DNA of 39,456 bases, taken from the NCBI GenBank assembly GCA_002256025.1, contig NKIB01014934.1, positions 1 through 39,456 of the forward strand, read 5' to 3'. The translations under genes were made by a program, and so were the position numbers. The notes under the pieces are model-generated. The model was not told the origin of the DNA. It saw nothing but the letters and a program-made list of their open reading frames with translations, and did not search any database. This DNA is from Asterionella formosa (Eukaryota). Each line of letters opens with the position of its first letter. Position 1 is the first letter of the stretch. Below are positions 10,634-37,982 of this stretch, one piece after another.

Positions 10634-13600
10634 ATGACAATGACACCCGAAAGCATCTTTGTTGAGGAGTCTGATGTAGATTTATTGAGCGACTTGGTCT
10701 CTGGCAAAGCAGATCAGAATCGCATTGAAGCATGCTTCCTCCGATTTCAGAACGACGTTGAAGCAGACGCTTTGGTAGAGCAAGACTACTGGAAGGACAG
10801 GCTGAAAGAGCTCAGTCTTCTCGGTTTTCATGTGAAAGAATCGTTCGCTGCTCCAAGATCAATTACAGAGCCATCGGCCTATGTGCTTCCAGCAGAGTTT
10901 GACACTCCATCTGGCAAAAAGCACGTGCTGGCCATTGCGAAGCTGCTGCGCATTTCTAGTCATCGCGCTTTGACACTAACGCTCTCTGCGCTGCAAGAAG
11001 CGAGCGATAACACAGATTTGAGATCCACTCTAGGCACACAATCCTTTGTCAAGACGGTGGTGGAGTACAGCCATAGTCAACGAGCGGCGCGGCTACTGAT
11101 TCTAGCTGAATGCCTACGGATGGAACAAGACGTGGCATGTCCCATCTTTGTCTACCAACAATTAGAAAAGATAGATACATGCTACAAAATGGATAGTAAA
11201 AATCGAGGTCTGATGCGACGATTAATAAGTTTAGCCACCGCTCCAGACTCACGACCACGCCGTGATGAACTCCTGCCCTTGAAGGATATGTTGGGAAACG
11301 ACGATCAATTTGTCACATCCATGATGAAAGAGCCACCCAACTTGCGAGAATATGCCTTGGAGGCTTTGGTAGTACTGCTTTACTCTCGCGTCAAGGTATC
11401 GCGATGTGACGTGATTCTCCTGTTGCAGGCCTTTGCATCGTATCGTTGTTTCTTTACGGAATTGCCACAACGACAACGGAGATTGACCTTGTTATGTGGA
11501 TTGGTATGTGCAGAGTGCTTTTCACTTAGAAATGTGACAGGAACGAATTGGGTTGACGAACATCCCATCCTCGTAGGAATCTTGCATGGAACCGCGACTG
11601 CTCAAGATGAATTGGAAGCCATGCGTATTCTGATGCTAGAGTACTCAACCAACTTAGTTCAGCGTCGTGGGGCATTGTTGGCGGGCGTCTCAAATGCGCC
11701 AGAAATTATTGTTGACGCCCCTGAGTCTTTGGCCATATTGGCTTTTGGCTTGTTGCTACAATTGGCATATACATCGCTACCAACACCCAATGAAGAAATG
11801 TGTATGTATTGGCACAAATTCAAAGGCTTTTCTTGGGAATTTACTAAAACCGCATCAGAACTATTGGGTGCATTTGGATACTTAGATTCGACCATGCGAG
11901 GATTATTGATGGAAACCGATGCCAATGGTATAACAACTTATGAAGAAGCCATTCCTTATGATTGGCAATGGTCCATGCCAATTGCACCGACTGAAAACCA
12001 TGCAAACGTGAGCCACCTTGATGCGACGAAAGTTCTATATACCAATAGTATTGGATTAGAGTTGCTTTCCGCTATATTGAGCGCCTTTTCTGGATCCATT
12101 TTGACATGCACCGAAAATATAAGTATGCTCGCCAATCTAGCTGCTGTCATTTACTCAAATAATCCCATTATGTGTGAACCATTTTGGAAGGATTGTCAAA
12201 CTTTTGATGCATGTTCGAAGCTTCTTTCTCCTAACCAGCAAGTCGCTGCCTTGCTAAATGCTACATACATCCTTGCAGCAACTGCAATGAACCAAATAGA
12301 GGAACAAAGTTTGCCCTCGATAGCTCCCTTGATGCGACTTTTGTCTTCCCTTTGTTTCGATTCAGATAGTTCCTCCAGGGTCCTTGGGATGCTTCCCGTT
12401 GATCTGATAGAAAATTCACTCTTGTTGTCCGCACCCACCGGATACCTTGTGGATGAAGCTGGCTATAGCACTAGTGTGCGGGGGATCTTGGAGTCTATCT
12501 ATACTATTGCCATATTGGACAAAACAATGTTGCTACAAAAATCTTTGAAAGCCGAAGGACCGCGATTAGTTTACTCCATCTTGTCATCAACCAAAGAAGA
12601 AAATGTGAAAAACGTTTCTCTAAAGCTAATTGGTGCCTTGATGAGCGATGACTGGGCCATCAGCACATGTAAATTATTTGATCACGATACTCTGGAACAT
12701 TATTTTACTACCCCCAATCTGACGGTCCCTGCTGTTGATCTATTGTGTGTATTTATACATAGCATGTCATCAGCTGTGGTTAAATCACCTTCAGAAAAGG
12801 AAACACTGGGCTATCTCAATGTAATCCTGCGAAGCGTCTTGGATGCATGTAGCGTCTTCGCCATGTCAGTACTGTCAATTGGGACCAAGCGAAAGTCGGA
12901 CGCAGGCAACCCCTCTCTGCCGATCCTCCAGGCCCTCGCAAGCTTCATTCGTTCAATTCGTCAAATTATTATTCTCCACCCCTCCTCTACCATTCGTGCT
13001 GCAGCATCGGAATGCAGAAACGCATTGATTCAGACATTGGCAACCAACACACAGTTGGGGTGCGCATTGGCTCATTCGGCTTGCTCTCCAGTCATGATGA
13101 CTCTCGTCCTTGAACTTGAACTCGATTTTGCCGAAGCGAATCAATTGAATTTTGCGTCTAATGAATTTGCTGTTGACAAGGATACAAACCGGTTTGGAGC
13201 ATGGAGAAATTTGATAAGAAATGCATCGAAGTCAGACACGACTAAGCATGTCCGAATCCGATTTCATGAGCGACTCTTAAACATTCAGGGCATCAAGTTG
13301 GACACGGCTGCTGTGAGTGAACAAGGATGGGTGGACCATGATGTGGCTCAACTAGCAGCATCGGCAATTGAGATTTTGGGTCTTTGGGCCTTCCTTGTTG
13401 ACGACATACTGGCGGAACGTTTTGATCTCGTCGAACCCTTGCCACTTGATGCAATCACTTTCATCAAAAGTACCAGTCCGAATCGCCTCATCTTGAGTCG
13501 TGCTTTGTTGCCACCTCGTGTGGGCGCTACCAGCTCTCTCTCGATTTTTTGGCAGTCAGAGTCACTCTCGGTATTGGATATACTTTCAACAAGCATCTTT

Positions 13601-16600
13601 TGCAAATCCAATGTTTCCACTTGTTCGACGTTTGATCTACTGACGGTCTGTATCCAGCATGAAACTTCGGTGGGGGAACAAAATCCGGTCTTGCAGCGGG
13701 CTTTGGCGCCCAAGGGCCAACTAAGTCTGGTATTGTTTCACTCTTTGCATCAATGTTGCACTCTTCTGTCTGGGGGGACCATTGGCTCTTCAAACAGCGA
13801 GATGACGAAAATATTGAGTCAAGGAATCCGAACGCTCAACCTCTTGCAGGTTATTATCGTATCTCAAGTGTGTTCTCTGCAGTTTCTAACGGAAGGTACT
13901 GTTCTCGAATCGCTTAATAATATTGTGTTTACTGTCGCTGCATCCATGAAAATGTACGGCAGCTCGCTTCACCAACAATTGCTGGACGACGATGTCTTGT
14001 TAGTCAAGGTGAGGCTATTGTCGGAGATTCTTCACGCATTTACTATGGCACAGAAAATTGGACACTCCCCTGCAAGTTCACTTCCCACTATACTTTCAAG
14101 CAATTTCTCAAGCGCACCCTTCTTGAGTGATTTGAGTTCGATGGTCTCGACTATCGTATCGACCCACTCATCTGCCTCTGCTTTGGACCATCGTGCTTCG
14201 TCCATATTGAACAATGTTCTGTCTTACTGCTTTGACTTACTTGCTGCCGAAGCTGTTGATGAAATGAATAACAGCAAAATCAGAGACAAAGATAGGATCG
14301 CAACCAATGGCATCACTCAAAATTGCGGCTTGTCTGGTTTTGAATCTAACCATAATTCTCTTAACTTTCATGGGCCTGTCCTCGTATCCCAGGCCTTTGG
14401 AAGACTGGTATCAAGGACACAATCAATTGCAATCTTGTCACAGCCATCATCACTACAGGCTGCATTCCCTGTTTCAATCACAAGCAATTTTTTCCTGTTT
14501 AGCCATGGTACATGTGATGTAGTTGAAGCAATCTCTTGGTTTTCCAATCTGGATGCTTCCGAAGATTTCAGCGCCTTTATTAAGGATTTAGACATAGCCA
14601 ACTCACTACTAGTGAGTGAATTGGCTCTTGTATCCTCGTGGAGTCGAATTTCTCAGGTATTTTCGCTTGCGAGTTGTTTCTCCACTATTGCTACTGTATC
14701 TTGTGTGATTGAGCAATACTGCCAGAACTGTAAAGGACTAGAAGAAGCTATGTTACAAGAAAACGAGTCAAGAGTTTTGGCTACCATTTTGATGTGTGAT
14801 TCCTTTTCCTCAGTACTGGTTTCCCATTTTCAACAATTTGAATCAACTACACCCTCAAGGCAATCATATGAGCTCTTGGCAATGCTCACCTCAACACTCG
14901 AGAAGCAAATGGCACTGTCTGCTTCAAGGAGTGTCATCTCTGTCAATCTTCAAGTCAAATTATCAGAAACCTTGTGCACATCACAGCAGCGACTGTTGAC
15001 TTGCTGTACATCGTTGATTATGACTATGCAGAGAAATAACTGTGACATGAACGAGAACCAAAACATGTTGCTCAGGTTGATGGACATCACTGGGGCATGT
15101 GTAGTTCATGCGATTCAGGCAAGCGACAATCCAAAAATGTTGTCACCAGCTCGGAATCTCTGCTGTGCTGCGATGTCATTTTTGACCCTTTGTATTTCTG
15201 TTAGCAGCGGAAGGCCATCGTTTTACGCTGGTGCAGCTGAAGCAATGGAATTGCATGGGACAGTCAAACACTTGATTGTGAGGGCATCAAGCGAAGAATT
15301 TGAGAAGGACGATGCTCGCGCCATTCATTTTTTAAATGCTACCCTCCAGTTCATCTTGATCATTGCCGAAGCTGGAAATTCTTCGCCAGGAATGGCTAGC
15401 TTGCTCATTGACCACCAGCTTCCAAAACTGCTTGTGTCTTGCCCACTCAGGATCAGTGAGAGTCGCAGATGGTCGGAGAATGCCAAACTTGGAAACGAAG
15501 GCATGAGATACCGTGGTTATATACCAAGCGCAAAAGTTTCAAAAGCAGTTGCCAAAGTTGAAGGCATTACATTAGAAACCGATAGACTTCTATTAAGTGG
15601 GAAAGACGACCCTCTGCATGCTTTGTGGGTTGATGCAATTGTGGTGGTGCGAACCCTCGCAAGGATGAAATCAATTATAATTGCCGACCCCAACAAGAGG
15701 AGATTTTTTGTGAACATAGCTATTGATTTTGTCACTACACACAAATCCACTCTTCTATCATGTTTACATCACTGTCACTCATCAACGTCGGAGTCAGTAA
15801 CAGTTCTCACTTACAATATTGTCAGAGAAGCTACAGAAGTATTCTCGCTCGTTACTGAGCTGTGCAATATAGCAAATAAGGATTTGTTTGAATGCTCTTG
15901 TCCCGAGCTATACAGGGAATTTGTGCTAGCCGCAAAGTCAGTGGTTGGAAGCATTTCGATGTTCCTGGGTTCCTCTGGAACAGCACGGGAATTGTTCTCG
16001 TTGCTGGCCAAAATTGACTCCTTGACAGGCCAGGACAACCAAAGCAACCAATATGATCAGCCTCAAGAAATTCACCTCTCATTTTCATCTGGAAGTCCAA
16101 GTGACCGACACGAGGCTATCCGAAATGCTCATCTGGCACGCCGGTGCTATGCACTTGTGACAAAGAGTGAGTATGATGCTTCCTCGATTGAGAACCTAGC
16201 CCAAGGGAAGTCTTCTCAATTTTCAGCAGCGACACTTGAGCAAAGTTGCCAAAAGGCAGTAAATAGCCCCTTTAATCTCAAAATGGAGCATGCTGCTGCG
16301 TTGTGCTTATCGTATGCCATTTCAATTCTCTGGAAAACACATCCCATCTCATCTGGTTTCATTATGTTTACGGAAGAAGAATCTCAGCAGCTCAACGCAA
16401 TGGCACTTGTCAAGCCCGGAATGATAGTTGCTCTTCGGGATAATGCCAGGTTAGGTAGCATACAATTTGCACGTGTTCAAAGCATTGACACAGTGAAGCG
16501 GACTTGGAATGTCAGTTATTTGCATTCTGAGTTATCGCAACCTTTGGGTGATATCCACGATGTAGTGGTTCATGCCGCTCAACTGGCTGGAATGGAGGAT

Positions 16601-17131
16601 CTGATGAAACGAAAAACAATCCTGAAATATGTTCCCGCTCCTGATTCTGCAATCGAACTAGAAAATGGGGGACCTGGTCGGAACTTGGCTTGTGTTGGCC
16701 ACCTGATAATTGCTCTGAGATGGTGTTACCAACATGAAGGTGAGGGTCCTTTTCGCGACTTACTTGTGCGTCGTTCCCTTGCTGCAGGTGCATCCATGCT
16801 GTTGAGCACTGAAATTTCTCTTCACAAGGAACTTGGGACTACCAGAAGGTTTCAAACCAATGAGGATATGAAACGTGTGAACCAACAACTGTATCACATC
16901 TTTGATACTTCTTGTTTAGAAGTGCAAGGGGATTTGTCCCAAAGCATGCATCAAGAACACATCGGGAGACTCCAAAAACTAATAGGTTTGGCAACTTGGA
17001 ATGGGATTCAACAGCAGCTTTGGAGCCAAATAGATTCTGCAAGGGAGGCCAAGCAACAAGAACAAGAGCAAAGAAAAGCAGCACTACTCAGTTCAAACCC
17101 ATGGCTTCATGGGGTCAGGAGTCCTTTCTAA
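10634..17131 (+). CDS. Large intronless Leu/Ser/Ala-rich alpha-solenoid protein, ~2165 aa; possibly nucleoporin Nup188/Nup205 family
   Basis: Uninterrupted 6.5-kb ORF (first ATG 10634) with a helical repeat-like pattern. Size and the N-terminal segment VVEYSHSQRAARLLILAECLR resemble the 'YY.ER..LL..L' segment of Nup188/205. The coding call is secure; the family call is tentative. Confidence 0.55.
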   Translation: MTMTPESIFVEESDVDLLSDLVSGKADQNRIEACFLRFQNDVEADALVEQDYWKDRLKELSLLGFHVKESFAAPRSITEPSAYVLPAEFDTPSGKKHVLAIAKLLRISSHRALTLTLSALQEASDNTDLRSTLGTQSFVKTVVEYSHSQRAARLLILAECLRMEQDVACPIFVYQQLEKIDTCYKMDSKNRGLMRRLISLATAPDSRPRRDELLPLKDMLGNDDQFVTSMMKEPPNLREYALEALVVLLYSRVKVSRCDVILLLQAFASYRCFFTELPQRQRRLTLLCGLVCAECFSLRNVTGTNWVDEHPILVGILHGTATAQDELEAMRILMLEYSTNLVQRRGALLAGVSNAPEIIVDAPESLAILAFGLLLQLAYTSLPTPNEEMCMYWHKFKGFSWEFTKTASELLGAFGYLDSTMRGLLMETDANGITTYEEAIPYDWQWSMPIAPTENHANVSHLDATKVLYTNSIGLELLSAILSAFSGSILTCTENISMLANLAAVIYSNNPIMCEPFWKDCQTFDACSKLLSPNQQVAALLNATYILAATAMNQIEEQSLPSIAPLMRLLSSLCFDSDSSSRVLGMLPVDLIENSLLLSAPTGYLVDEAGYSTSVRGILESIYTIAILDKTMLLQKSLKAEGPRLVYSILSSTKEENVKNVSLKLIGALMSDDWAISTCKLFDHDTLEHYFTTPNLTVPAVDLLCVFIHSMSSAVVKSPSEKETLGYLNVILRSVLDACSVFAMSVLSIGTKRKSDAGNPSLPILQALASFIRSIRQIIILHPSSTIRAAASECRNALIQTLATNTQLGCALAHSACSPVMMTLVLELELDFAEANQLNFASNEFAVDKDTNRFGAWRNLIRNASKSDTTKHVRIRFHERLLNIQGIKLDTAAVSEQGWVDHDVAQLAASAIEILGLWAFLVDDILAERFDLVEPLPLDAITFIKSTSPNRLILSRALLPPRVGATSSLSIFWQSESLSVLDILSTSIFCKSNVSTCSTFDLLTVCIQHETSVGEQNPVLQRALAPKGQLSLVLFHSLHQCCTLLSGGTIGSSNSEMTKILSQGIRTLNLLQVIIVSQVCSLQFLTEGTVLESLNNIVFTVAASMKMYGSSLHQQLLDDDVLLVKVRLLSEILHAFTMAQKIGHSPASSLPTILSSNFSSAPFLSDLSSMVSTIVSTHSSASALDHRASSILNNVLSYCFDLLAAEAVDEMNNSKIRDKDRIATNGITQNCGLSGFESNHNSLNFHGPVLVSQAFGRLVSRTQSIAILSQPSSLQAAFPVSITSNFFLFSHGTCDVVEAISWFSNLDASEDFSAFIKDLDIANSLLVSELALVSSWSRISQVFSLASCFSTIATVSCVIEQYCQNCKGLEEAMLQENESRVLATILMCDSFSSVLVSHFQQFESTTPSRQSYELLAMLTSTLEKQMALSASRSVISVNLQVKLSETLCTSQQRLLTCCTSLIMTMQRNNCDMNENQNMLLRLMDITGACVVHAIQASDNPKMLSPARNLCCAAMSFLTLCISVSSGRPSFYAGAAEAMELHGTVKHLIVRASSEEFEKDDARAIHFLNATLQFILIIAEAGNSSPGMASLLIDHQLPKLLVSCPLRISESRRWSENAKLGNEGMRYRGYIPSAKVSKAVAKVEGITLETDRLLLSGKDDPLHALWVDAIVVVRTLARMKSIIIADPNKRRFFVNIAIDFVTTHKSTLLSCLHHCHSSTSESVTVLTYNIVREATEVFSLVTELCNIANKDLFECSCPELYREFVLAAKSVVGSISMFLGSSGTARELFSLLAKIDSLTGQDNQSNQYDQPQEIHLSFSSGSPSDRHEAIRNAHLARRCYALVTKSEYDASSIENLAQGKSSQFSAATLEQSCQKAVNSPFNLKMEHAAALCLSYAISILWKTHPISSGFIMFTEEESQQLNAMALVKPGMIVALRDNARLGSIQFARVQSIDTVKRTWNVSYLHSELSQPLGDIHDVVVHAAQLAGMEDLMKRKTILKYVPAPDSAIELENGGPGRNLACVGHLIIALRWCYQHEGEGPFRDLLVRRSLAAGASMLLSTEISLHKELGTTRRFQTNEDMKRVNQQLYHIFDTSCLEVQGDLSQSMHQEHIGRLQKLIGLATWNGIQQQLWSQIDSAREAKQQEQEQRKAALLSSNPWLHGVRSPF

Positions 17132-22558: not shown

Positions 22559-23893
22559 TTAGGTACCACGAAAGGTGCTCTCTGTGGAAGTCGAATGATA
22601 TAAAGTCTTCTCATCACCAGCTTGCCTTAACAAAGATCCGCCTTCTTGTCCATCATGCACAATCAAGTGCGGGGCCAGAATATGGGTGGCGGTCGATTCA
22701 AGTACTGTCATAAAGAACACGAGACCAGAGTAAAAGGCAATCACATGAACAGGATCAGTCCATCCTAATCCAGCGGTTCCAAAGGGAACCACAACCAAAA
22801 CACCTAAAACAACCCACCAACACCACATAATAAGCTTCACATCTGGAGGGTCGAAAGGTCTTGGCATTCTTCCTCCATAGTGAAGAACGCGCAACAAAAA
22901 GAGGATTGTGAGAGCAACTCCAATGGAAATGCCCATGAGACGCGAGGCAAACGGTGGCAACATCTCCTCTTGTATCACAGCAACGACAAACATCTTCACT
23001 GAAACTCCCACCGCCAGCAATGCCAGTCCCAAAAGTCGGGTGAAAAAAATGAGCACAGCTCCGTGGATACGAGAGCGCCGAATGGCGTGGTCTGCCATTG
23101 GTGGATCCATGTGAAAGTACATGAGTGTGAACATGAACACCAAAAGAAATTCCAACGAAAGCACTATATTGTATCCCTGGTCGCTTGCAACCATTGTCTC
23201 TTTGCCTCTCATCTCACGGTAAAGAATTGTAGCAGACACGACAGTTTCCCCGAGCATGACAAGAACGATACACCCAAATCGATCCCTCGTATGTTCAATA
23301 TTTAATGGTATCAATGCGTTTCCTTTTAAAACCAAGATTCCAACAAATTCTAAGGAAAGTTCGATTACAACAGCAATCCACCAACAGATAGGCGCTAGCT
23401 CTGGGCGAATGGAAGCCACCAAGAACATCGAAATTACTAGAACAATTGAGAGGACGAGCAACGTACAGAACTGACGGGCTCTCGGGATGAACACATAGAT
23501 ATTCACCAACATGATGAGAACCGCGAGGCGCTGCAATATGGCTCCCCTTGAAAACTGAATAGCAGTATCATAGCCAGCATTGATTATGCATTGTGCAAAC
23601 CCAAGTAAATAAACAAAGAAATTCAATGTGTGCAACAAGGTGCCATCTTCAAACCTAGTTGTGATGTGGTGAGTATATAACAGCCAACTGTTGATGAAGC
23701 AATAGTAAATGACACAGAATTCGGCAACGCCAGCCATGGTCGGATTGTCCTTCAATCCATCCGCAGTGGCGCTAGCAGCTGCCACCAAAAGCAAATCTAG
23801 AAAGAGTTCCCAGTATCTCGCACTCGCTGCTGTTTCCTCAGTGTCCCAGTCCTGCAAGAGCACCGGAGCTCCGTAGAGCATTCGGGCTACCAT
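22559..23893 (-). CDS. Low temperature requirement protein A (LtrA)-family polytopic membrane protein, 444 aa
   Basis: Motifs ARYWELFLDLLLVAA, TRFED and IPLNIEHTRDRFGCIVLVMLGETVV, plus roughly 11-12 hydrophobic segments. Confidence 0.85.
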   Translation of the reverse strand: MVARMLYGAPVLLQDWDTEETAASARYWELFLDLLLVAAASATADGLKDNPTMAGVAEFCVIYYCFINSWLLYTHHITTRFEDGTLLHTLNFFVYLLGFAQCIINAGYDTAIQFSRGAILQRLAVLIMLVNIYVFIPRARQFCTLLVLSIVLVISMFLVASIRPELAPICWWIAVVIELSLEFVGILVLKGNALIPLNIEHTRDRFGCIVLVMLGETVVSATILYREMRGKETMVASDQGYNIVLSLEFLLVFMFTLMYFHMDPPMADHAIRRSRIHGAVLIFFTRLLGLALLAVGVSVKMFVVAVIQEEMLPPFASRLMGISIGVALTILFLLRVLHYGGRMPRPFDPPDVKLIMWCWWVVLGVLVVVPFGTAGLGWTDPVHVIAFYSGLVFFMTVLESTATHILAPHLIVHDGQEGGSLLRQAGDEKTLYHSTSTESTFRGT

Positions 23894-30475: not shown

Positions 30476-32559
30476 ATGGCAGACAAGAGGATTTTAGAGG
30501 CCCACAACGCCTTTTCGTCCCCCACCAAACTAGGCCTCAGGTACACTGCTCCTCCAAAGTCACCCATTCAGCGCAATAGTCCCACGACTGCTTCCTCTCC
30601 GTCGCGGCAGTCTCACTTCTCCGATGCCACTGCATCCACGTCGCCAGGACTCAGCAAGGCGGACTTGGCGGCTGCCATTAATGATGCTGATAGTGCACTG
30701 GCCGGAGTGGCGTCTTCACAAGTTCCAGAAATCAGCAGGTCGTCCCCTGTCAAGGAAACGATTGTTGGCAGAGCGATGAACCAACAGCACACGGGAAGCA
30801 GAGATGGGTCGACCAGCTCTGCTTCCTCAATGTCCTCTGTCTCACGCAAAGAATTGGATTTCAAACACAATGACAATACCTTTCACGTAGTAGCGAACTT
30901 GATCTTGGAGAAATTTCAGGCGAAGATGACTCCTGGAGACACATTCTTGACATTGGATGCGGCGGATATTGCCCATTTGGACCAAATAGCGCCCCATAAT
31001 GTCAGAATTTCATTTGTGGAAGCGGTTCGCTATCGGTTGGAGCACAATTGTCCTCCAAACTCGGATTTGAACATTCATGCATTGACGCGGGAATGTGGTG
31101 ACATTGGACTTGCAAGACATGGGAATGATAATCCATTGTTGGCCACTCTAAATGCTGCTGGGATGAAAGCCATTACAATTGCGGTGAGTTAGTTGACTTG
31201 AACATATATATCAATACTTTTGTAATCAAATGCCTCATTTTATCGCATCGTCACATTCTATCATAGGTCCCACCTTTGAGGAAACACAGAAACAGTGGGT
31301 CCCTTACTAATCCTGCTCGACCTGGCATCCCACCTCCATACCCCGGCACGCATTCATCTGCAATGCCAATCTCTGTACCGCCTACAAGAGGCGATGCTTC
31401 CGTTGCCTCCGCAGGGGGGTCGACCATTACTGGGGTTTCGGTTACCGAAGCTCATGTCTCCACCACTGAATCACTGGCACGTCAACAGCTCATGGCGGAA
31501 CTCCGAGAAGCGTCCAACTTAATGGCTGAATCGGTCACTCCAGAGGCGGCCACGTTCTGGAGAAATCACGTAGTGGATCTTCAAGCACGTCTTCGAGCCT
31601 TGCATGGGGAAGGATCGGGTGATACCACCCGTGGACAGTACGAGCACACACCCATCAGTTATCACCAAGGACCTGTTTATGAACCCGCGTTCCCAGATGC
31701 ACCTCCCACCTACCAACCAGAGCCTAAGGCAAAGTACGAGCCACCCCACCAGCAACAATCCCGAGAATCGATTGCCCCTCCAAAGCCAGTTGCTCCAGCT
31801 CCCGAGAAACGATCTACTGGCGGTCGTGGACGTCCAATTGTGGATGTGATTGCTCCTGCAGCCTTGCCCGGTGGATATCATTTTGAAGCTGAAATCCAAG
31901 GCCGCCGTTTCCTGGCCGTTGTACCTGCAGGTGGCGTCAAAAAAGGAGAGACATTTTCGTGCTTGATGCGGGACCTTGAAATAGTCGCACCTGGTGTTCC
32001 TGTTGGTCGCTGGAGAGACAGACTTTGCGACTGCTGCAATTACGGCATTACCCATGCACTCTTTTGCAATGCACTCTTTTGTCCCCTCCTCGCCCTCGGA
32101 CAAGTGATGACTCGCCTTAATTATGATTTTTTGGGGCGTCCATCGCCAGTGAAGAGGACAATGACTGCCTACTGCACCATGTGGTCGATTGTGATCTTTG
32201 CCATTCTCATGAATTCATTGATTTATGCTGCTTATTGTTACAAGTGGTCTTTCAACATGCCTCTGTCATATGCCGATATTGCTGCAAGTGTCCTTTTGAA
32301 TGCGTGCCTTGTGGCTTTTACCATTTCTGCCACATCGGCGGCACGAGCAACTCTCCGTGACAAATATATGATTCGAGAGCATCGATTTTTTGATTTGGAA
32401 GATTGCTGCTGTGCCACCTTTTGCATGCCTTGCACCATTTGCCAAATGGGCCGGCACACGGTGAACTATGATGAAGTTGATGCTGTCTGCTGCAGTGCGA
32501 ATGGGTTGAGCGCAAAACCTACTAATTCAACAAAGAACACGTCAGGATATATAATTTGA
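30476..32559 (+). CDS. PLAC8 (Cys-rich, PCR/CNR-like) family membrane protein with long N-terminal extension; exons 30476-31183 and 31267-32559, ~666 aa
   Basis: An 83-nt intron GCG|GTGAGT...tcatag|GTC in phase 0 joins two ORF-track entries. PLAC8 motifs: GRWRDRLCDCC, NALFCPLLALGQVMTRL, RATLRDKYMI, EDCCCATFCMPCTICQMGRH. Confidence 0.88.
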
Positions 32560-32703: not shown

Positions 32704-35202
32704 TTAGGAAATATTATTTTCAATTCTGGACTTGGCAAGGGGCTCAGTCATGTTTGAGTTCTCTGATGTTGTTGGTGAAGGAGGTAGTTCCACATGAACA
32801 TGAAATGGTAAGCCATTCGATGACCAACACTGAGCACTAAAAGTTTCGTAATCAGCGGTGTGGCGGTGCATTTGCATCAATACCAACGGGTAGCATGCAA
32901 ACGTTATTGCGGTGTCTTCTTCTCCCACACACGATTGTTCCGGGATCATATAACGCTGTCGCAGACGTTTTCGGGTTCTTGCTACGTTGGTCAAAAAGTA
33001 AATGAGAACAAGCGTGTCAACGACAATGAATAGAGCGATTTGCAAGAAGGAAAAGGCTCCAAACATGACGCCTTGTACGGGTAGATAATAGAGAAGGCAG
33101 TTTATGATGACAAAGATCATCGATAGTATCAACGAGATCCGAAAGGCATCCTTTGCTTTGTGCGGGCGACCGGGAAGACCAATCCAACTGATCTTTAACC
33201 TCGACATCACTTGAGCTAACGAGAGAATCGGACAAAAGAGGGAATTAAGAACTGAGGCATGCAAGGGGCCAAATTTGCAGCAATCCAATAATCCGTCATT
33301 CCAACGCCCCATTCGATTTGACGTGTTCACTGTGAACTTTGTTGTTACTTCATCCTCAAGAAGGGTACTTCTGAAGACTTCCCCCTTTCGAACTCCCCCT
33401 TGCGGCACGGTTGCTCGAAATGTGTGATCCTCTGTTTGTGCTTGGAATTGATAGTTTCCAGGCAAGTCCATCGGTGCCATAACATCCATTCCTTGTGTAC
33501 TCGATGGTGTTGCGGAGATCTTATTGTCACCTTTAAATTCAGTGACTTTATCGTTTATTGCAGGTACTTTTCGTATGGGAGCAAGCCTTGTCGGTAACAC
33601 TTTCTCATTTTGTATATCCAAAATCTCATTAAGCTCAGATTGGAGCTTGCGAATGCGATCGCGGCATTCAATCTTGACCCGTTCATTTGATGTTAAGTGC
33701 ATCATACGAGTAACCCGCTTTATCTGCTGGTGAGTAGTGTTCATGTCGGAGATTGCAGTTCTCGGTTTCTGCATTGCATCCAGGTTCGCCGATTCTGTTT
33801 GCGGACCATGACGTTGCCTTCCATCCTGTAATTCTTGAATGCCGGTCCCGTCCAAGAAATGATCTGTACTGCGAACTTGATGGGAATTTGGGATCTCACG
33901 GAAGACAACCGTCTCAGTTTCGAATGATCTATCTGGTCTCATGTCTGCCGTAAATTTTTTCCCGTTCACTGATCCGCTTATGTCAAGTACATTTGTATTG
34001 ACATCCTCATAATATTCACTTTCCGCAGCAAGCATCTCATCATAACTTAGAGATTGCTGCATTTCGTCTACTACTTCAAATATAACATCTTCATTTCCTT
34101 GTAACACATCAACCTGTATGTGAGAAGATGGATCGAACCTGTAAGGCGAAACATCTTCTGAGAATTCAAAGGGTGTATCTTCATTCATGGTATAGTTGAC
34201 TGCATCGACAATCCCCGTCTCTGCATGAGCATTGTTATCTTGTGTTGGCATGTTGTCAGGAAAGAAATGTTGCCGAGCCCCTTCATGCCGTTGCGAAGCG
34301 GGACAACCCATCTCGTCATTTAGTATTTGTGAGCTGCTTGTTGGAGTGTCATCTTCCGGGAAGAAATGACGTCTCTGTTGTGTTTGTTTTTGATGCCTCA
34401 TCCTTTCTGGAGCATTAACCTCTTGTGTACCATCGGCCTTGGGTTCGGTTTTTGTTTGAGTGGTTGTGGGAGGAAGCACTTCGCCAATAAAAGGCATGCC
34501 GTGCATACAAAGCGCTCTGGATACTTCCCTTGTTAGAGCAGTAACTTCAGTTTCTTTGATGGAAGGCTGAAATGGCATGTACTTGAGTCTGTGCTTGAGT
34601 GCTGCCTGAAAGTCTTGCAGAATTTTATCCGTCAAGTAAGGAGGTCGAGGTCTTTGCTGTTGGTCTGCATTGTAAAATTTTTCTCCAGTAGCGGATTGGT
34701 AAATCGCGTCGAGCATATCTATAAAGACCGAGGTCGTATGACATCCTGTATCTACCGAACTCGAAGCATCATCTGACCACCTGAAGTAGTTGAGCAAAAG
34801 ATGCGCCACGAACGAAAACTCGTCGTCGTTGTGTCTCATATCAATCGTGGTGGCTTCAATCTCTGCCGTGTGACTACTGAAGGACACCTTCTTGTTGATC
34901 TTGTCGTTCTGGTGTTTCCTGATATTGCTTGGCGAACTTTTCGTGGCCGGCAATCTGCTGGAAGGACTTGGAACGGACTGTGCTTCGTAGAAGGATTGTG
35001 GAAGAATGATGGGAAGTGCCCCATTCGGACTCATGGTTGGCTGAGATCGCGGAGGGTGGAGGATTGAGTTGGAATCTGTGTCATCAAAGGCTCTCTTGTG
35101 ATCATTCCTGTTTTGCCGCTTTAACGACGAAGGAAGAGTACAGTTATAATTCGGTGCATCATGTTGTTCTTGATTGTGATGATTGTAACTGAACGACGAC
35201 AT
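32704..35202 (-). CDS. Second PLAC8-family protein with long N-terminal extension, 832 aa, intronless, convergent paralogue
   Basis: Motifs GRWNDGLLDCC, NSLFCPILSLAQVMSRL, RKRLRQRYMIP and EDTAITFACYPLVLMQMHRHT. The pre-PLAC8 module DVMAPMDLPGNYQF...VPQGGVRKGEVF is shared with the neighbouring gene. Confidence 0.88.
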   Translation of the reverse strand: MSSFSYNHHNQEQHDAPNYNCTLPSSLKRQNRNDHKRAFDDTDSNSILHPPRSQPTMSPNGALPIILPQSFYEAQSVPSPSSRLPATKSSPSNIRKHQNDKINKKVSFSSHTAEIEATTIDMRHNDDEFSFVAHLLLNYFRWSDDASSSVDTGCHTTSVFIDMLDAIYQSATGEKFYNADQQQRPRPPYLTDKILQDFQAALKHRLKYMPFQPSIKETEVTALTREVSRALCMHGMPFIGEVLPPTTTQTKTEPKADGTQEVNAPERMRHQKQTQQRRHFFPEDDTPTSSSQILNDEMGCPASQRHEGARQHFFPDNMPTQDNNAHAETGIVDAVNYTMNEDTPFEFSEDVSPYRFDPSSHIQVDVLQGNEDVIFEVVDEMQQSLSYDEMLAAESEYYEDVNTNVLDISGSVNGKKFTADMRPDRSFETETVVFREIPNSHQVRSTDHFLDGTGIQELQDGRQRHGPQTESANLDAMQKPRTAISDMNTTHQQIKRVTRMMHLTSNERVKIECRDRIRKLQSELNEILDIQNEKVLPTRLAPIRKVPAINDKVTEFKGDNKISATPSSTQGMDVMAPMDLPGNYQFQAQTEDHTFRATVPQGGVRKGEVFRSTLLEDEVTTKFTVNTSNRMGRWNDGLLDCCKFGPLHASVLNSLFCPILSLAQVMSRLKISWIGLPGRPHKAKDAFRISLILSMIFVIINCLLYYLPVQGVMFGAFSFLQIALFIVVDTLVLIYFLTNVARTRKRLRQRYMIPEQSCVGEEDTAITFACYPLVLMQMHRHTADYETFSAQCWSSNGLPFHVHVELPPSPTTSENSNMTEPLAKSRIENNIS

Positions 35203-35562: not shown

Positions 35563-35693
35563 ATGGTGATACCATAATATGGTGCCAGACCAGGAGGTCA
35601 TCATAATCATATCGCTACATACATACAAATAATATTGTGCTCTACCTGAATATCTTATATATTTATTTGATGCTCTTGACGCTATCCACGACG

Positions 35694-36236
35694 ATGATGA
35701 TGAAGCTCCAAATGATGGTCGCACTGCTGCTTTCCCTCTCCGCATCCGCACCCATGTTTGGAGATGCATTTGTCCTTCCATTCGGAGTGACTGCCCCCAC
35801 CATCCGTTGCACTAGTACCACCCAGCTCCCCATGATTATGAACTTTCTCAATCAAGGCAAGAAAGCTCTAGTCAAGTCATTTGCTGGAGACTTTGATGAA
35901 GCGTCTACCCGTGCATTGTTAGACAGCTACATTGCCACTCCTGGTGTTATGATGCTCTCCTTCACGACATGTCCCTACTGCATCAAGGCCAAGGAAGTAC
36001 TGAATTCAAAAGGGGCAAAATATGAAGTAGTGGAATTAAATATCATTCCCGAGGGCAAGGCCATTCGGGCTGTCATGGCGGATGTTATTGGACGAACATC
36101 TGTTCCTGCCGTCTTTATTGATGGGGTGTTTGTAGGTGGATGCAATGATGGACCTTCTGCGGAATACAATGGTTTAGTCAAATTGGATCAAGCTGGGAAA
36201 TTAGACGCCATGTTGGCCAAGGCTGGGGCGGTCTAA
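35694..36236 (+). CDS. GRX: Dithiol glutaredoxin (CPYC) with bipartite plastid-targeting presequence, ~180 aa
   Basis: SFTTCPYCIKAK, GRTSVPAVFIDGVFVGGCND; N-terminus MMMKLQMMVALLLSLSASAPMFGDA|FVLP. An alternative ATG lies at 35670. Confidence 0.92.
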   Translation: MMMKLQMMVALLLSLSASAPMFGDAFVLPFGVTAPTIRCTSTTQLPMIMNFLNQGKKALVKSFAGDFDEASTRALLDSYIATPGVMMLSFTTCPYCIKAKEVLNSKGAKYEVVELNIIPEGKAIRAVMADVIGRTSVPAVFIDGVFVGGCNDGPSAEYNGLVKLDQAGKLDAMLAKAGAV

Positions 36237-36572
36237 TATTGCCTGCTTCATGAGGAAAACTGAATAGATATGTACGTAGTAGTAGCTATGCGCATGCAGT
36301 TTTACCTCAAAAAACATGCAATCTTCCAATACCTTTGTCCCGCCAAGACGTTAAAATATTTCGAATATGTGTAGACCCAATAGTTCTTGCTTCATGTCGA
36401 TGGACTGCAGCACTATCGTGAAGTTGATTATTTCTACAAAGCAATTTATGCAGGAATGATGTACATATAGGACTAAAAAAGACAGGCATGAAGCAAGATA
36501 TATAAAAGACGTAACGTACTGGCTATAACACGAAAACGTAATGTAAACCAAATTGGTTCAAGAAATTGCACA

Positions 36573-37982
36573 CTAGAAAGAAATGGAACTAACGATACGG
36601 TCCCAGTTGGGCAATCCAACAATATCAAGATGATGATGCAAGTATTCACCTTTGTTTGGAGACGCAAATGGGTCGACATACGTTTCCAAGGTGTAACGGG
36701 AAGCTGCCACATTCCAGGGATCCTTGGGATTTCCAAAGGCCATGTACTCCCTCTGCTGGAAAATCGCAAAGTGATCAAGAGAATGAAACACAGATACTTG
36801 CCAAATCAATGTCACCAACATTGTCATGGGGTCCTTGATTTCGATTGAGGGCACAGCTACTTTCAAGAAGGCAACAAATTCTTCCAATAGGTCAGATTCC
36901 ACACCATATTCTCGAACGTATTTGTCGATGTACGGGTAATACATCTTGACAACCCGATGAAAGACAAATCGATCATCAAAGTCATACATGTCCTTGTACT
37001 GACAAGAAGGAGGCACGAAGCTACCACCCTGATCTTTCCCAGTCAGGTAGTAGTAATGCTGAGTACGGGCAATGTTCAAAAACGCAAAGTCGTGCTGCGT
37101 AATGGAGAAACAATGAGGAAAGGCCGAATCTTGTTTCTGGACCGGGATGAACATATTGTGTCCAGCAAAGTTGAACACCAAAGTGAATCTCGTGTGTGTG
37201 TCCAACAGCTTCGCCAGTCGGCTTCCTTGTTTGACGGGGTCGTGCATGAGTTTATCGGCAAATAGTGCCATCGAGGTGGGCAAATGGAAGTGAATGAACG
37301 AGTGTGTGTAGGCCAGAAGGGCAGAGCTCACCACCGTCGTGACATTCGGAGTGCTGGGCAGTACGGAATCCTCTCCTTCAAAGACGTACGCCTTTCGATT
37401 GATATGGTCCAACTTGAAGGTGTATCCAGGCAAGACCGGATTCTTGCGATCAGGACTCTCTGGCACGCGATTGAAGATGGTAAGGTCCAGAGTCTGGCCA
37501 TCCGGAGCACAGGAGAAAGAGAGGGACGTGGTGGCGATGAAGTTATAGAGCGACGACTCGTTGTGGGGCATGGCAGTGATGCCTCGAATATAGGACGGCA
37601 TGACCCGACTCATGAACCCAAGGGAGCGGCGGAGGTAGGCACCGTGCTTGTTGGTGTAAAAGTCTGCCTGCAGGCGCTTGGAGAGCTGCTTGAGGTTGGG
37701 TTCAATAATGGCTTCGTCAACGTGGTTTGCAGGGTCGTAATCCCAGGACACAACTGGAGTTGGCAACAGCGAGCCTTTGATGGAATTATAGAGCTTCAAC
37801 AACGGCACGAGAATATAAAGCTCCGCGGTGATGTGGAGCCTGAATTTCAACACTGATAAGCGACGCGGAAGATACATGGGGTTAAGGATCATCAGCCAGT
37901 CGTACCAGGACGATGGAGTTGCGATGATCATGGTACCCGCCTTCGAAAGAGAGGGAAAAAGAGGAGTTGATTCGTCTTTCAT
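36573..37982 (-). CDS. Divergent compact lipoxygenase-like protein, 469 aa, intronless
   Basis: LOX-like motifs in the canonical order: YTHSFIHFH (metal His cluster), LAKLLDTHTRFTLVFN (cf. YKLLxPHxRxTMxIN), IWQVSVFHSLDHF (cf. IWxASAxHAAVNF), C-terminal SSISF (cf. NSISI). Confidence 0.68.
   Translation of the reverse strand: MKDESTPLFPSLSKAGTMIIATPSSWYDWLMILNPMYLPRRLSVLKFRLHITAELYILVPLLKLYNSIKGSLLPTPVVSWDYDPANHVDEAIIEPNLKQLSKRLQADFYTNKHGAYLRRSLGFMSRVMPSYIRGITAMPHNESSLYNFIATTSLSFSCAPDGQTLDLTIFNRVPESPDRKNPVLPGYTFKLDHINRKAYVFEGEDSVLPSTPNVTTVVSSALLAYTHSFIHFHLPTSMALFADKLMHDPVKQGSRLAKLLDTHTRFTLVFNFAGHNMFIPVQKQDSAFPHCFSITQHDFAFLNIARTQHYYYLTGKDQGGSFVPPSCQYKDMYDFDDRFVFHRVVKMYYPYIDKYVREYGVESDLLEEFVAFLKVAVPSIEIKDPMTMLVTLIWQVSVFHSLDHFAIFQQREYMAFGNPKDPWNVAASRYTLETYVDPFASPNKGEYLHHHLDIVGLPNWDRIVSSISF

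Follow-up and report, generated by a model that had tools for sequence, protein, structure and literature searches.

A putative, deeply divergent PLAT-less lipoxygenase encoded in Asterionella formosa

The window analyzed here, a 39,456-nucleotide stretch of Asterionella formosa DNA (contig NKIB01014934.1), carries on its minus strand, at positions 36573..37982, an intronless open reading frame for a single-domain protein of 469 amino acids with a predicted, divergent lipoxygenase (LOX) fold. Its neighbors in the window are ordinary eukaryotic genes, with Pfam matches to glutaredoxin, PLAC8, EMG1, bZIP, proteasome ATPase and FANCL, and none of them is linked to lipid oxidation. The glutaredoxin gene (35670-36236, plus strand), whose product has a signal-peptide-like N-terminus, is convergent with the LOX-like gene; one of its RNA contigs reaches position 36508, and the 3′ ends of the two genes nearly meet. 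Pfam also identified two convergent PLAC8-domain genes (31363-32559, plus strand, and 32704-35202, minus strand) and a membrane protein gene of the LtrA family (bacterial low temperature requirement A; 22559-23893, minus strand), while an uninterrupted 2165-aa reading frame (10634-17131, plus strand) had no Pfam match at E ≤ 0.1.

The reading frame at 36573-37982 on the minus strand is a genuine gene, transcribed and polyadenylated. A single RNA contig spans 36585-37922 without gaps, with no joints inside the gene, and a 3′ untranslated region (36503..36572, minus strand) ends at a poly(A) site near 36503, where four contigs of one poly(A) RNA run carry a loose end formed by a run of T. Parts of the stretch were present in 20 of the 22 runs listed, with 17 lake, freshwater, estuary and algal studies represented. 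An alternative start codon, Met18 in the 469-aa numbering, lies at 37931 and would give a protein of 452 aa. Since RNA contigs from three studies end at 37922-37948, near this codon, and the close homologues begin at the Met18 position in the alignment, Met18 rather than Met1 may be the true start, although this is a weak hint. The gene is under purifying selection and widely expressed: dN/dS was 0.26 against a metagenome gene of 98% identity (12 non-synonymous and 13 synonymous changes). A second copy lies at 2789-4195 of contig C7254, with a dN/dS of 0.43 relative to the window gene. The protein encoded by this copy is 94% identical with all ligands intact; the sequence common to the two loci is limited to the gene and about 180 upstream bases. 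The reading frames on either side of the second copy resemble retroelement gag and recombinase genes.

The translated frame contains, in canonical order and within 469 aa, the four LOX-type motifs that the sequence-only reading had recognized: HSFIHFH (H227, H231, H233), a KLLxxHxRFxxxFN segment, HSLDH (H400, H404) and the C-terminal SSISF. A pattern of these four ordered motifs matched none of 200,000 shuffled versions of the protein, a test which, as the pattern was composed after the protein had been seen, excludes only compositional chance for the motif order. The first pair of predicted ligands, H227-x3-H231, is followed by a conserved Phe232 (37290..37304, minus strand). In a profile alignment, the next segment (37149..37196, minus strand) holds H263, then N271-x-x-G274, in which Gly274 occupies the Coffa-Brash position and is aligned with the alanine of 5-LOX three residues beyond the Asn, and Phe278, which takes the place of the Leu clamp. 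The second ligand pair, H400-S-L-D403-H404 (36771..36785, minus strand), precedes the terminal S-I-S-F (36576..36587, minus strand), whose Phe469 carboxylate is the predicted fifth ligand.

Conventional domain searches did not recognize the protein. Neither PLAT, PF00305 nor any other Pfam domain was found in it at E ≤ 0.1, a search of the PDB with the single sequence returned no match, a profile built from eight close homologues found no LOX, and NCBIfam yielded nothing relevant across 47 family members. The ESM features of the protein pointed to PF00305 clusters (0.90, a value that is weak on the tool's own scale), and when the ESM Atlas was searched with P0014, a bacterial homologue, no cluster of LOXs came up. 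Among 33 proteins of the divergent family or candidates for it, PF00305 gave seven sub-threshold matches and none above the cut-off, against two of two canonical controls above it. The family profiles did reach LOX sequences, with E-values of 2.7e-9 for 5-LOX and 1.4e-8 for CspLOX2.

An AlphaFold model (AF2) was obtained from a 47-sequence family alignment that contained no canonical LOX (pLDDT 87.4, pTM 0.87). An earlier model, built from eight sequences (pLDDT 48.5), had no match at E ≤ 0.001 and was discarded as evidence. With the family model as query, 39 Foldseek matches reached E ≤ 0.001, and all those listed were LOXs. Compared with 48,161 representative chains, the model matched 12 with Z ≥ 8, all of them LOXs (Z 15.3-21.6), whereas the next fold reached only Z 5.2. 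A VIA-align superposition on human 12-LOX (Z 21.9, rmsd 3.2 Å over 356 residues, model range 72-469) ended at residue 469, matched to the last residue of the solved chain, which would place the C-terminal Phe on the C-terminal metal-ligand position. From the range of this superposition, the histidines and the C-terminus would converge on one site. By its modeled fold and predicted ligand set, the window protein belongs to the lipoxygenase superfamily, but it lies outside the canonical family in its PF00305 score, first-pair spacing, C-terminal residue and clamp.

The absence of a PLAT domain, noticed from the letters, also held in the model, in which residues 26-69 form helices and not a β-barrel. 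These basic and hydrophobic N-terminal helices (26-32 and 35-69; residues 26-69 at 37776..37907, minus strand) occupy the place of the PLAT domain, and most of their length precedes the structurally matched range, 63/72-469. The best 19-residue hydropathy in the N-terminal region, 1.37, indicates no clear transmembrane segment; the helices may take over the membrane-binding role of a PLAT domain. Two differences account for the small size of the protein: it has no β-barrel, and only about 65 residues follow the second ligand pair, compared with 116-128 in four canonical bacterial LOXs and more than 100 in most other members of the family.

To describe conservation, 33 of the 47 alignment rows were used, leaving out seven near-duplicates and seven fragments. 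Seven close homologues (54-97% identity; 67% for that of Attheya) share the S-I-S-F terminus, and the four histidines are retained in each. The equivalents of H227, H231, H400 and H404 are histidine in 33/33 members, most of them only 13-30% identical to the query; the first 25 members were found with the single protein, and those found by profile were partly selected for motifs. The spacing Hx3H is thereby confirmed. H233, which had been counted in the His cluster, is histidine in just 16/33 members and was rejected as a metal ligand. A Phe follows the second histidine in 32/33 members, an Asp or Glu precedes the fourth in 32/33, and the chain ends with Phe in 23 members and with Tyr in 8, while Ala and Val each occur once. 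Glycine at the switch was found in 13/13 tabulated proteins of the sub-branch and 17/33 of the family. Several features of canonical enzymes are lost. The Glu four residues before the first His, present in 6/6 canonical bacterial controls, occurs in 0/33 members, as does the Gln three residues after the fourth ligand, which the canonical controls keep. At Asn+7, the Leu-clamp position as defined by a sequence offset that leaves a register shift possible, Leu was found in 0/33 members versus 5/6 controls, and 13 different residues occur there across the family.

The HSLDH motif, proposed to be non-canonical, turned out to be of the ordinary three-His-plus-His type and lies within the range of ligands known from the consulted part of PMC13059375, while the aromatic C-terminus and the lost clamp lie outside it; the same excerpt describes a C-terminal Ile or Val as common to all LOXs. 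The profile alignment to 5-LOX runs without gaps through the His cluster: the first histidines of the two coincide, the second of the family comes one position early, and the conserved Phe of the family aligns on the second His of 5-LOX. Other alignments place a gap within the His pair and a compensating gap later, likewise with no net change in length. Counted from the first His, the downstream His lies at a distance of 32 in 14/33 members, as in 6/6 canonical controls, and of 31 in 6/33; in the diatom group the distance is 36, owing to a loop insertion. In most of the family, then, the second His has been shifted, not deleted. A deletion between the two histidines as a rule for the family was discarded for the type of the window protein, and fits only one branch (P0077-79/84/85).

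The family is not diatom-specific, as members also occur in scattered bacteria. A full HMMER scan with the single protein gave 25 hits at E ≤ 0.001, including proteins of Thalassotalea loyana and of a Kiritimatiellia genome bin; one hit, the repeat protein P0018, was dropped as spurious. Shewanella maritima carries a family gene as well. Profile searches of sampled bacterial genomes, in samples that overlap and include the seed genomes, gave matches in 4/401, 7/151, 4/401 and 15/301 genomes, of which 4, 2, 2 and 4, respectively, held family members and the others canonical LOXs, which the family profile reached at E 1e-4 to 1e-8. A scan of metagenome contigs yielded one relative among 511 candidates, and plasmids gave no match to P0077. 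A quick maximum-likelihood tree of 39 rows and 547 columns, with SH-aLRT support only and limited to the family and bacterial LOXs, split the 33 family rows from the six canonical bacterial LOXs with a support of 100. Six diatom-type rows form one group (support 100) inside a 12-row branch (support 98) that also holds the Thalassotalea, Shewanella and Kiritimatiellia proteins and three others, two of these 12 rows being long. The window protein lies in a compact, Gly-switch sub-branch that it shares with marine bacteria.

Stand-alone bacterial orthologues of 385-386 aa with the full ligand set were located at L003:6001-7161, L004:6001-7158 and L011:1501-2658. The orthologue in L004 sits among unrelated genes, while those in L003 and L011 adjoin what we take to be a twitching-motility-type ATPase gene. 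No operon context was common to the two bacterial loci of Thalassotalea and Shewanella.

The suggestion of a little-described mini-LOX clade is supported. Its ligand pattern is not new, since the combination of Hx3H and HxxxH is already listed in silico for diatoms (PMC10968607, main text and supplement part 1). In these parts of their work, based on modeling and docking only, Giordano et al. (2024) report 45 diatom LOX candidates, among which group III comprises three sequences, from Phaeodactylum (XP_002180840), Synedropsis and Corethron. Two of the three carry HswvH-HstdH (Table S2), and in the one from Phaeodactylum a Ser follows the first His, the switch residue is Ala and the clamp residue is Gln. 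Group III resembles the window protein in Hx3H, a His as fourth ligand, Ser after the first His and the lack of a Leu clamp, but its sequences are longer (569-596 aa against 469) with Ala and Gln where the window protein has Gly and Phe. The bacterial-type members P0062 and P0063 of our family carry exactly HSWVH and HSTDH. Judged by its motifs, group III very probably belongs to the family of the window protein, on a different branch. The source treats the His spacing of group III as a deletion, and no discussion of the C-terminal residue, manganese or bacterial relatives was found in its main text and first supplement part. In the literature covered, which excludes most subscription journals, we found no description of the aromatic C-terminus or of bacterial members, and no biochemically characterized member of the family.

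Among LOXs of known structure, the best matches were mammalian 12/15-LOXs and the coral 8R-LOX (8ghb, 3rde, 1lox, 4qwt; Z 20-22). Porcine 12-LOX shares His as the fourth ligand in the alignment, and 8R-LOX shares Gly at the switch (PMC10968607, parts cited above); these enzymes differ in having a PLAT domain, Hx4H, a C-terminal Ile and the Leu clamp. The PLAT-less iron LOXs CspLOX2 of Cyanothece (5med; Z 20.6, 352 residues) and PA-LOX of Pseudomonas (5ir4; Z 19.9, 349 residues) have a similar catalytic fold and also no β-barrel. Unlike the window protein, they are about 100 or more residues longer, with Hx4H, Asn as the fourth ligand and about 10% identity.

On this basis, we somewhat favor the reading that the window protein is a non-heme, probably iron-dependent, fatty-acid dioxygenase. 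The enzyme would be soluble and lack a PLAT domain, and its place in the lipoxygenase superfamily would be on a deeply divergent branch. A mononuclear non-heme metal, most likely iron, would be held by the histidines H227, H231 and H400 and by the carboxylate of Phe469, H404 being the variable ligand. From a polyunsaturated fatty acid, which in a diatom would be EPA or a C16 acid, the metal-hydroxide would abstract a bis-allylic hydrogen, and addition of O2 would give a hydroperoxide that enters oxylipin chemistry. The pocket, in which Ser follows the first His, the switch is Gly, Phe replaces the clamp Leu, the distal wall carries Thr/Tyr and the part beyond the third His is shorter by about 55 residues, appears rebuilt, so that a non-standard positional specificity is predicted. 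The Gly at the Coffa-Brash site, correctly read from the sequence, makes R-specificity plausible but uncertain, given that the otherwise invariant Leu with which the Gly/Ala switch cooperates has been exchanged. LOX-derived products have been reported from freshwater diatoms (PMC4483651, excerpt). The loss of the clamp is the strongest argument against plain LOX activity: in the consulted part of PMC12383934, this Leu is described as completely conserved in canonical iron LOXs, and fungal LOXs with Cys at this position fold and bind metal but show nominal activity only. The missing second-shell Glu and Gln and the aromatic C-terminus also count against the dioxygenase reading, as does the fact that many of the bacterial carriers are not known to make PUFAs.

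As the main alternative, the altered site could serve a LOX-fold enzyme acting on hydroperoxides as an isomerase, epoxy-alcohol synthase or lyase downstream of another LOX, like eLOX3 or the multifunctional red-algal LOX. The loss of the Leu clamp and of the second-shell network, together with the conserved acid gained beside the fourth His, argues for this possibility; eLOX3 and the G316A variant of MnLOX show that the LOX fold is capable of hydroperoxide processing (PMC13319228, excerpt), and the downstream oxylipin steps of diatoms are described as largely unknown in the part of PMC7401250 consulted. We nevertheless hold it to be unlikely, since the Thalassotalea and Shewanella homologues stand alone with no LOX adjoining, and the Gly that all tabulated sub-branch proteins have in the O2 channel agrees with open access of O2. 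A broader proposal, to which we likewise give only a minor chance, makes the whole family a separate class of LOX-fold metalloenzymes in bacteria and protists, mostly missed by Pfam, with non-dioxygenase chemistry. Its site would combine four histidines, the shifted second His, an acidic second shell, an aromatic C-terminus and no Leu clamp. If true, for example with hydroperoxide lyase or epoxy-alcohol synthase chemistry, the family would supply missing steps in the formation of diatom oxylipins and volatile hydrocarbons, and no LOX-fold enzyme encountered in this analysis would be smaller than its bacterial members of 385 aa.

As for the bound metal, fungal manganese LOXs have the Hx3H spacing of the first pair, which had been taken as a hint of an unusual metal. 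A manganese LOX convergent with these enzymes, in which the four-His site and the acidic residue gained in the second shell might shift the redox potential, appears rather improbable. The low-confidence first model did rank 5fx8 at the top (E 0.024), and the fungal enzymes (5fno, 5fx8) also have the LOX fold and no β-barrel. However, the PDB matches of four family profiles at E ≤ 10 contain only iron LOXs and no manganese LOX, the family model fits 5fx8 and 5fno no better (Z 19.4 and 19.1) than iron enzymes (Z 20-22), and the shifted second His involves no net deletion. The fungal proteins further differ as secreted glycoproteins that, in the consulted part of PMC13059375, end in Val where the window protein ends in Phe. 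Iron is the default candidate for the metal. That the protein binds metal in a LOX fold yet uses another substrate (other lipids, monoenes, sterols or carotenoids) or has little activity seems quite improbable to us. The wide variation of the pocket at the clamp position would suit such a role, and class II fungal LOXs are near inactive (PMC12383934, same excerpt), but the full ligand set is kept in very distant members, and purifying selection and wide expression speak against it.

The family may make some of the defense and signaling lipids of diatoms, whose oxylipins shape grazing and bloom ecology. Searches of the A. formosa genome with PF00305, the canonical bacterial LOX P0081 and P0077 returned no candidates, and with P0030 and P0062 nothing beyond the window gene and its second copy came up; the searches are insensitive, and absence is not implied. 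With the canonical searches empty, divergent genes like this one become candidates for the oxylipin chemistry of the genome. Gene surveys that start from canonical LOXs and PF00305 miss the window protein, in which near-universal features (Hx4H of iron enzymes, C-terminal Ile/Val and the Leu clamp) are broken while the predicted fold is kept. The family is directly testable, as its 385-aa bacterial orthologues occur in cultured marine species.

Two other variants were observed in the family. In P0030 (861 aa), the divergent LOX domain is preceded by a long hydrophobic extension that apparently crosses the membrane several times. A proteobacterial branch (L007, L008, L009, L018, L024) has genuinely lost one residue from the His helix and is nearer to canonical LOX, its profile matching porcine 12-LOX at E 2.6e-11. 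In L008-L010, the neighbors resemble signaling genes for a cyclase, a kinase and a sigma-54 activator.
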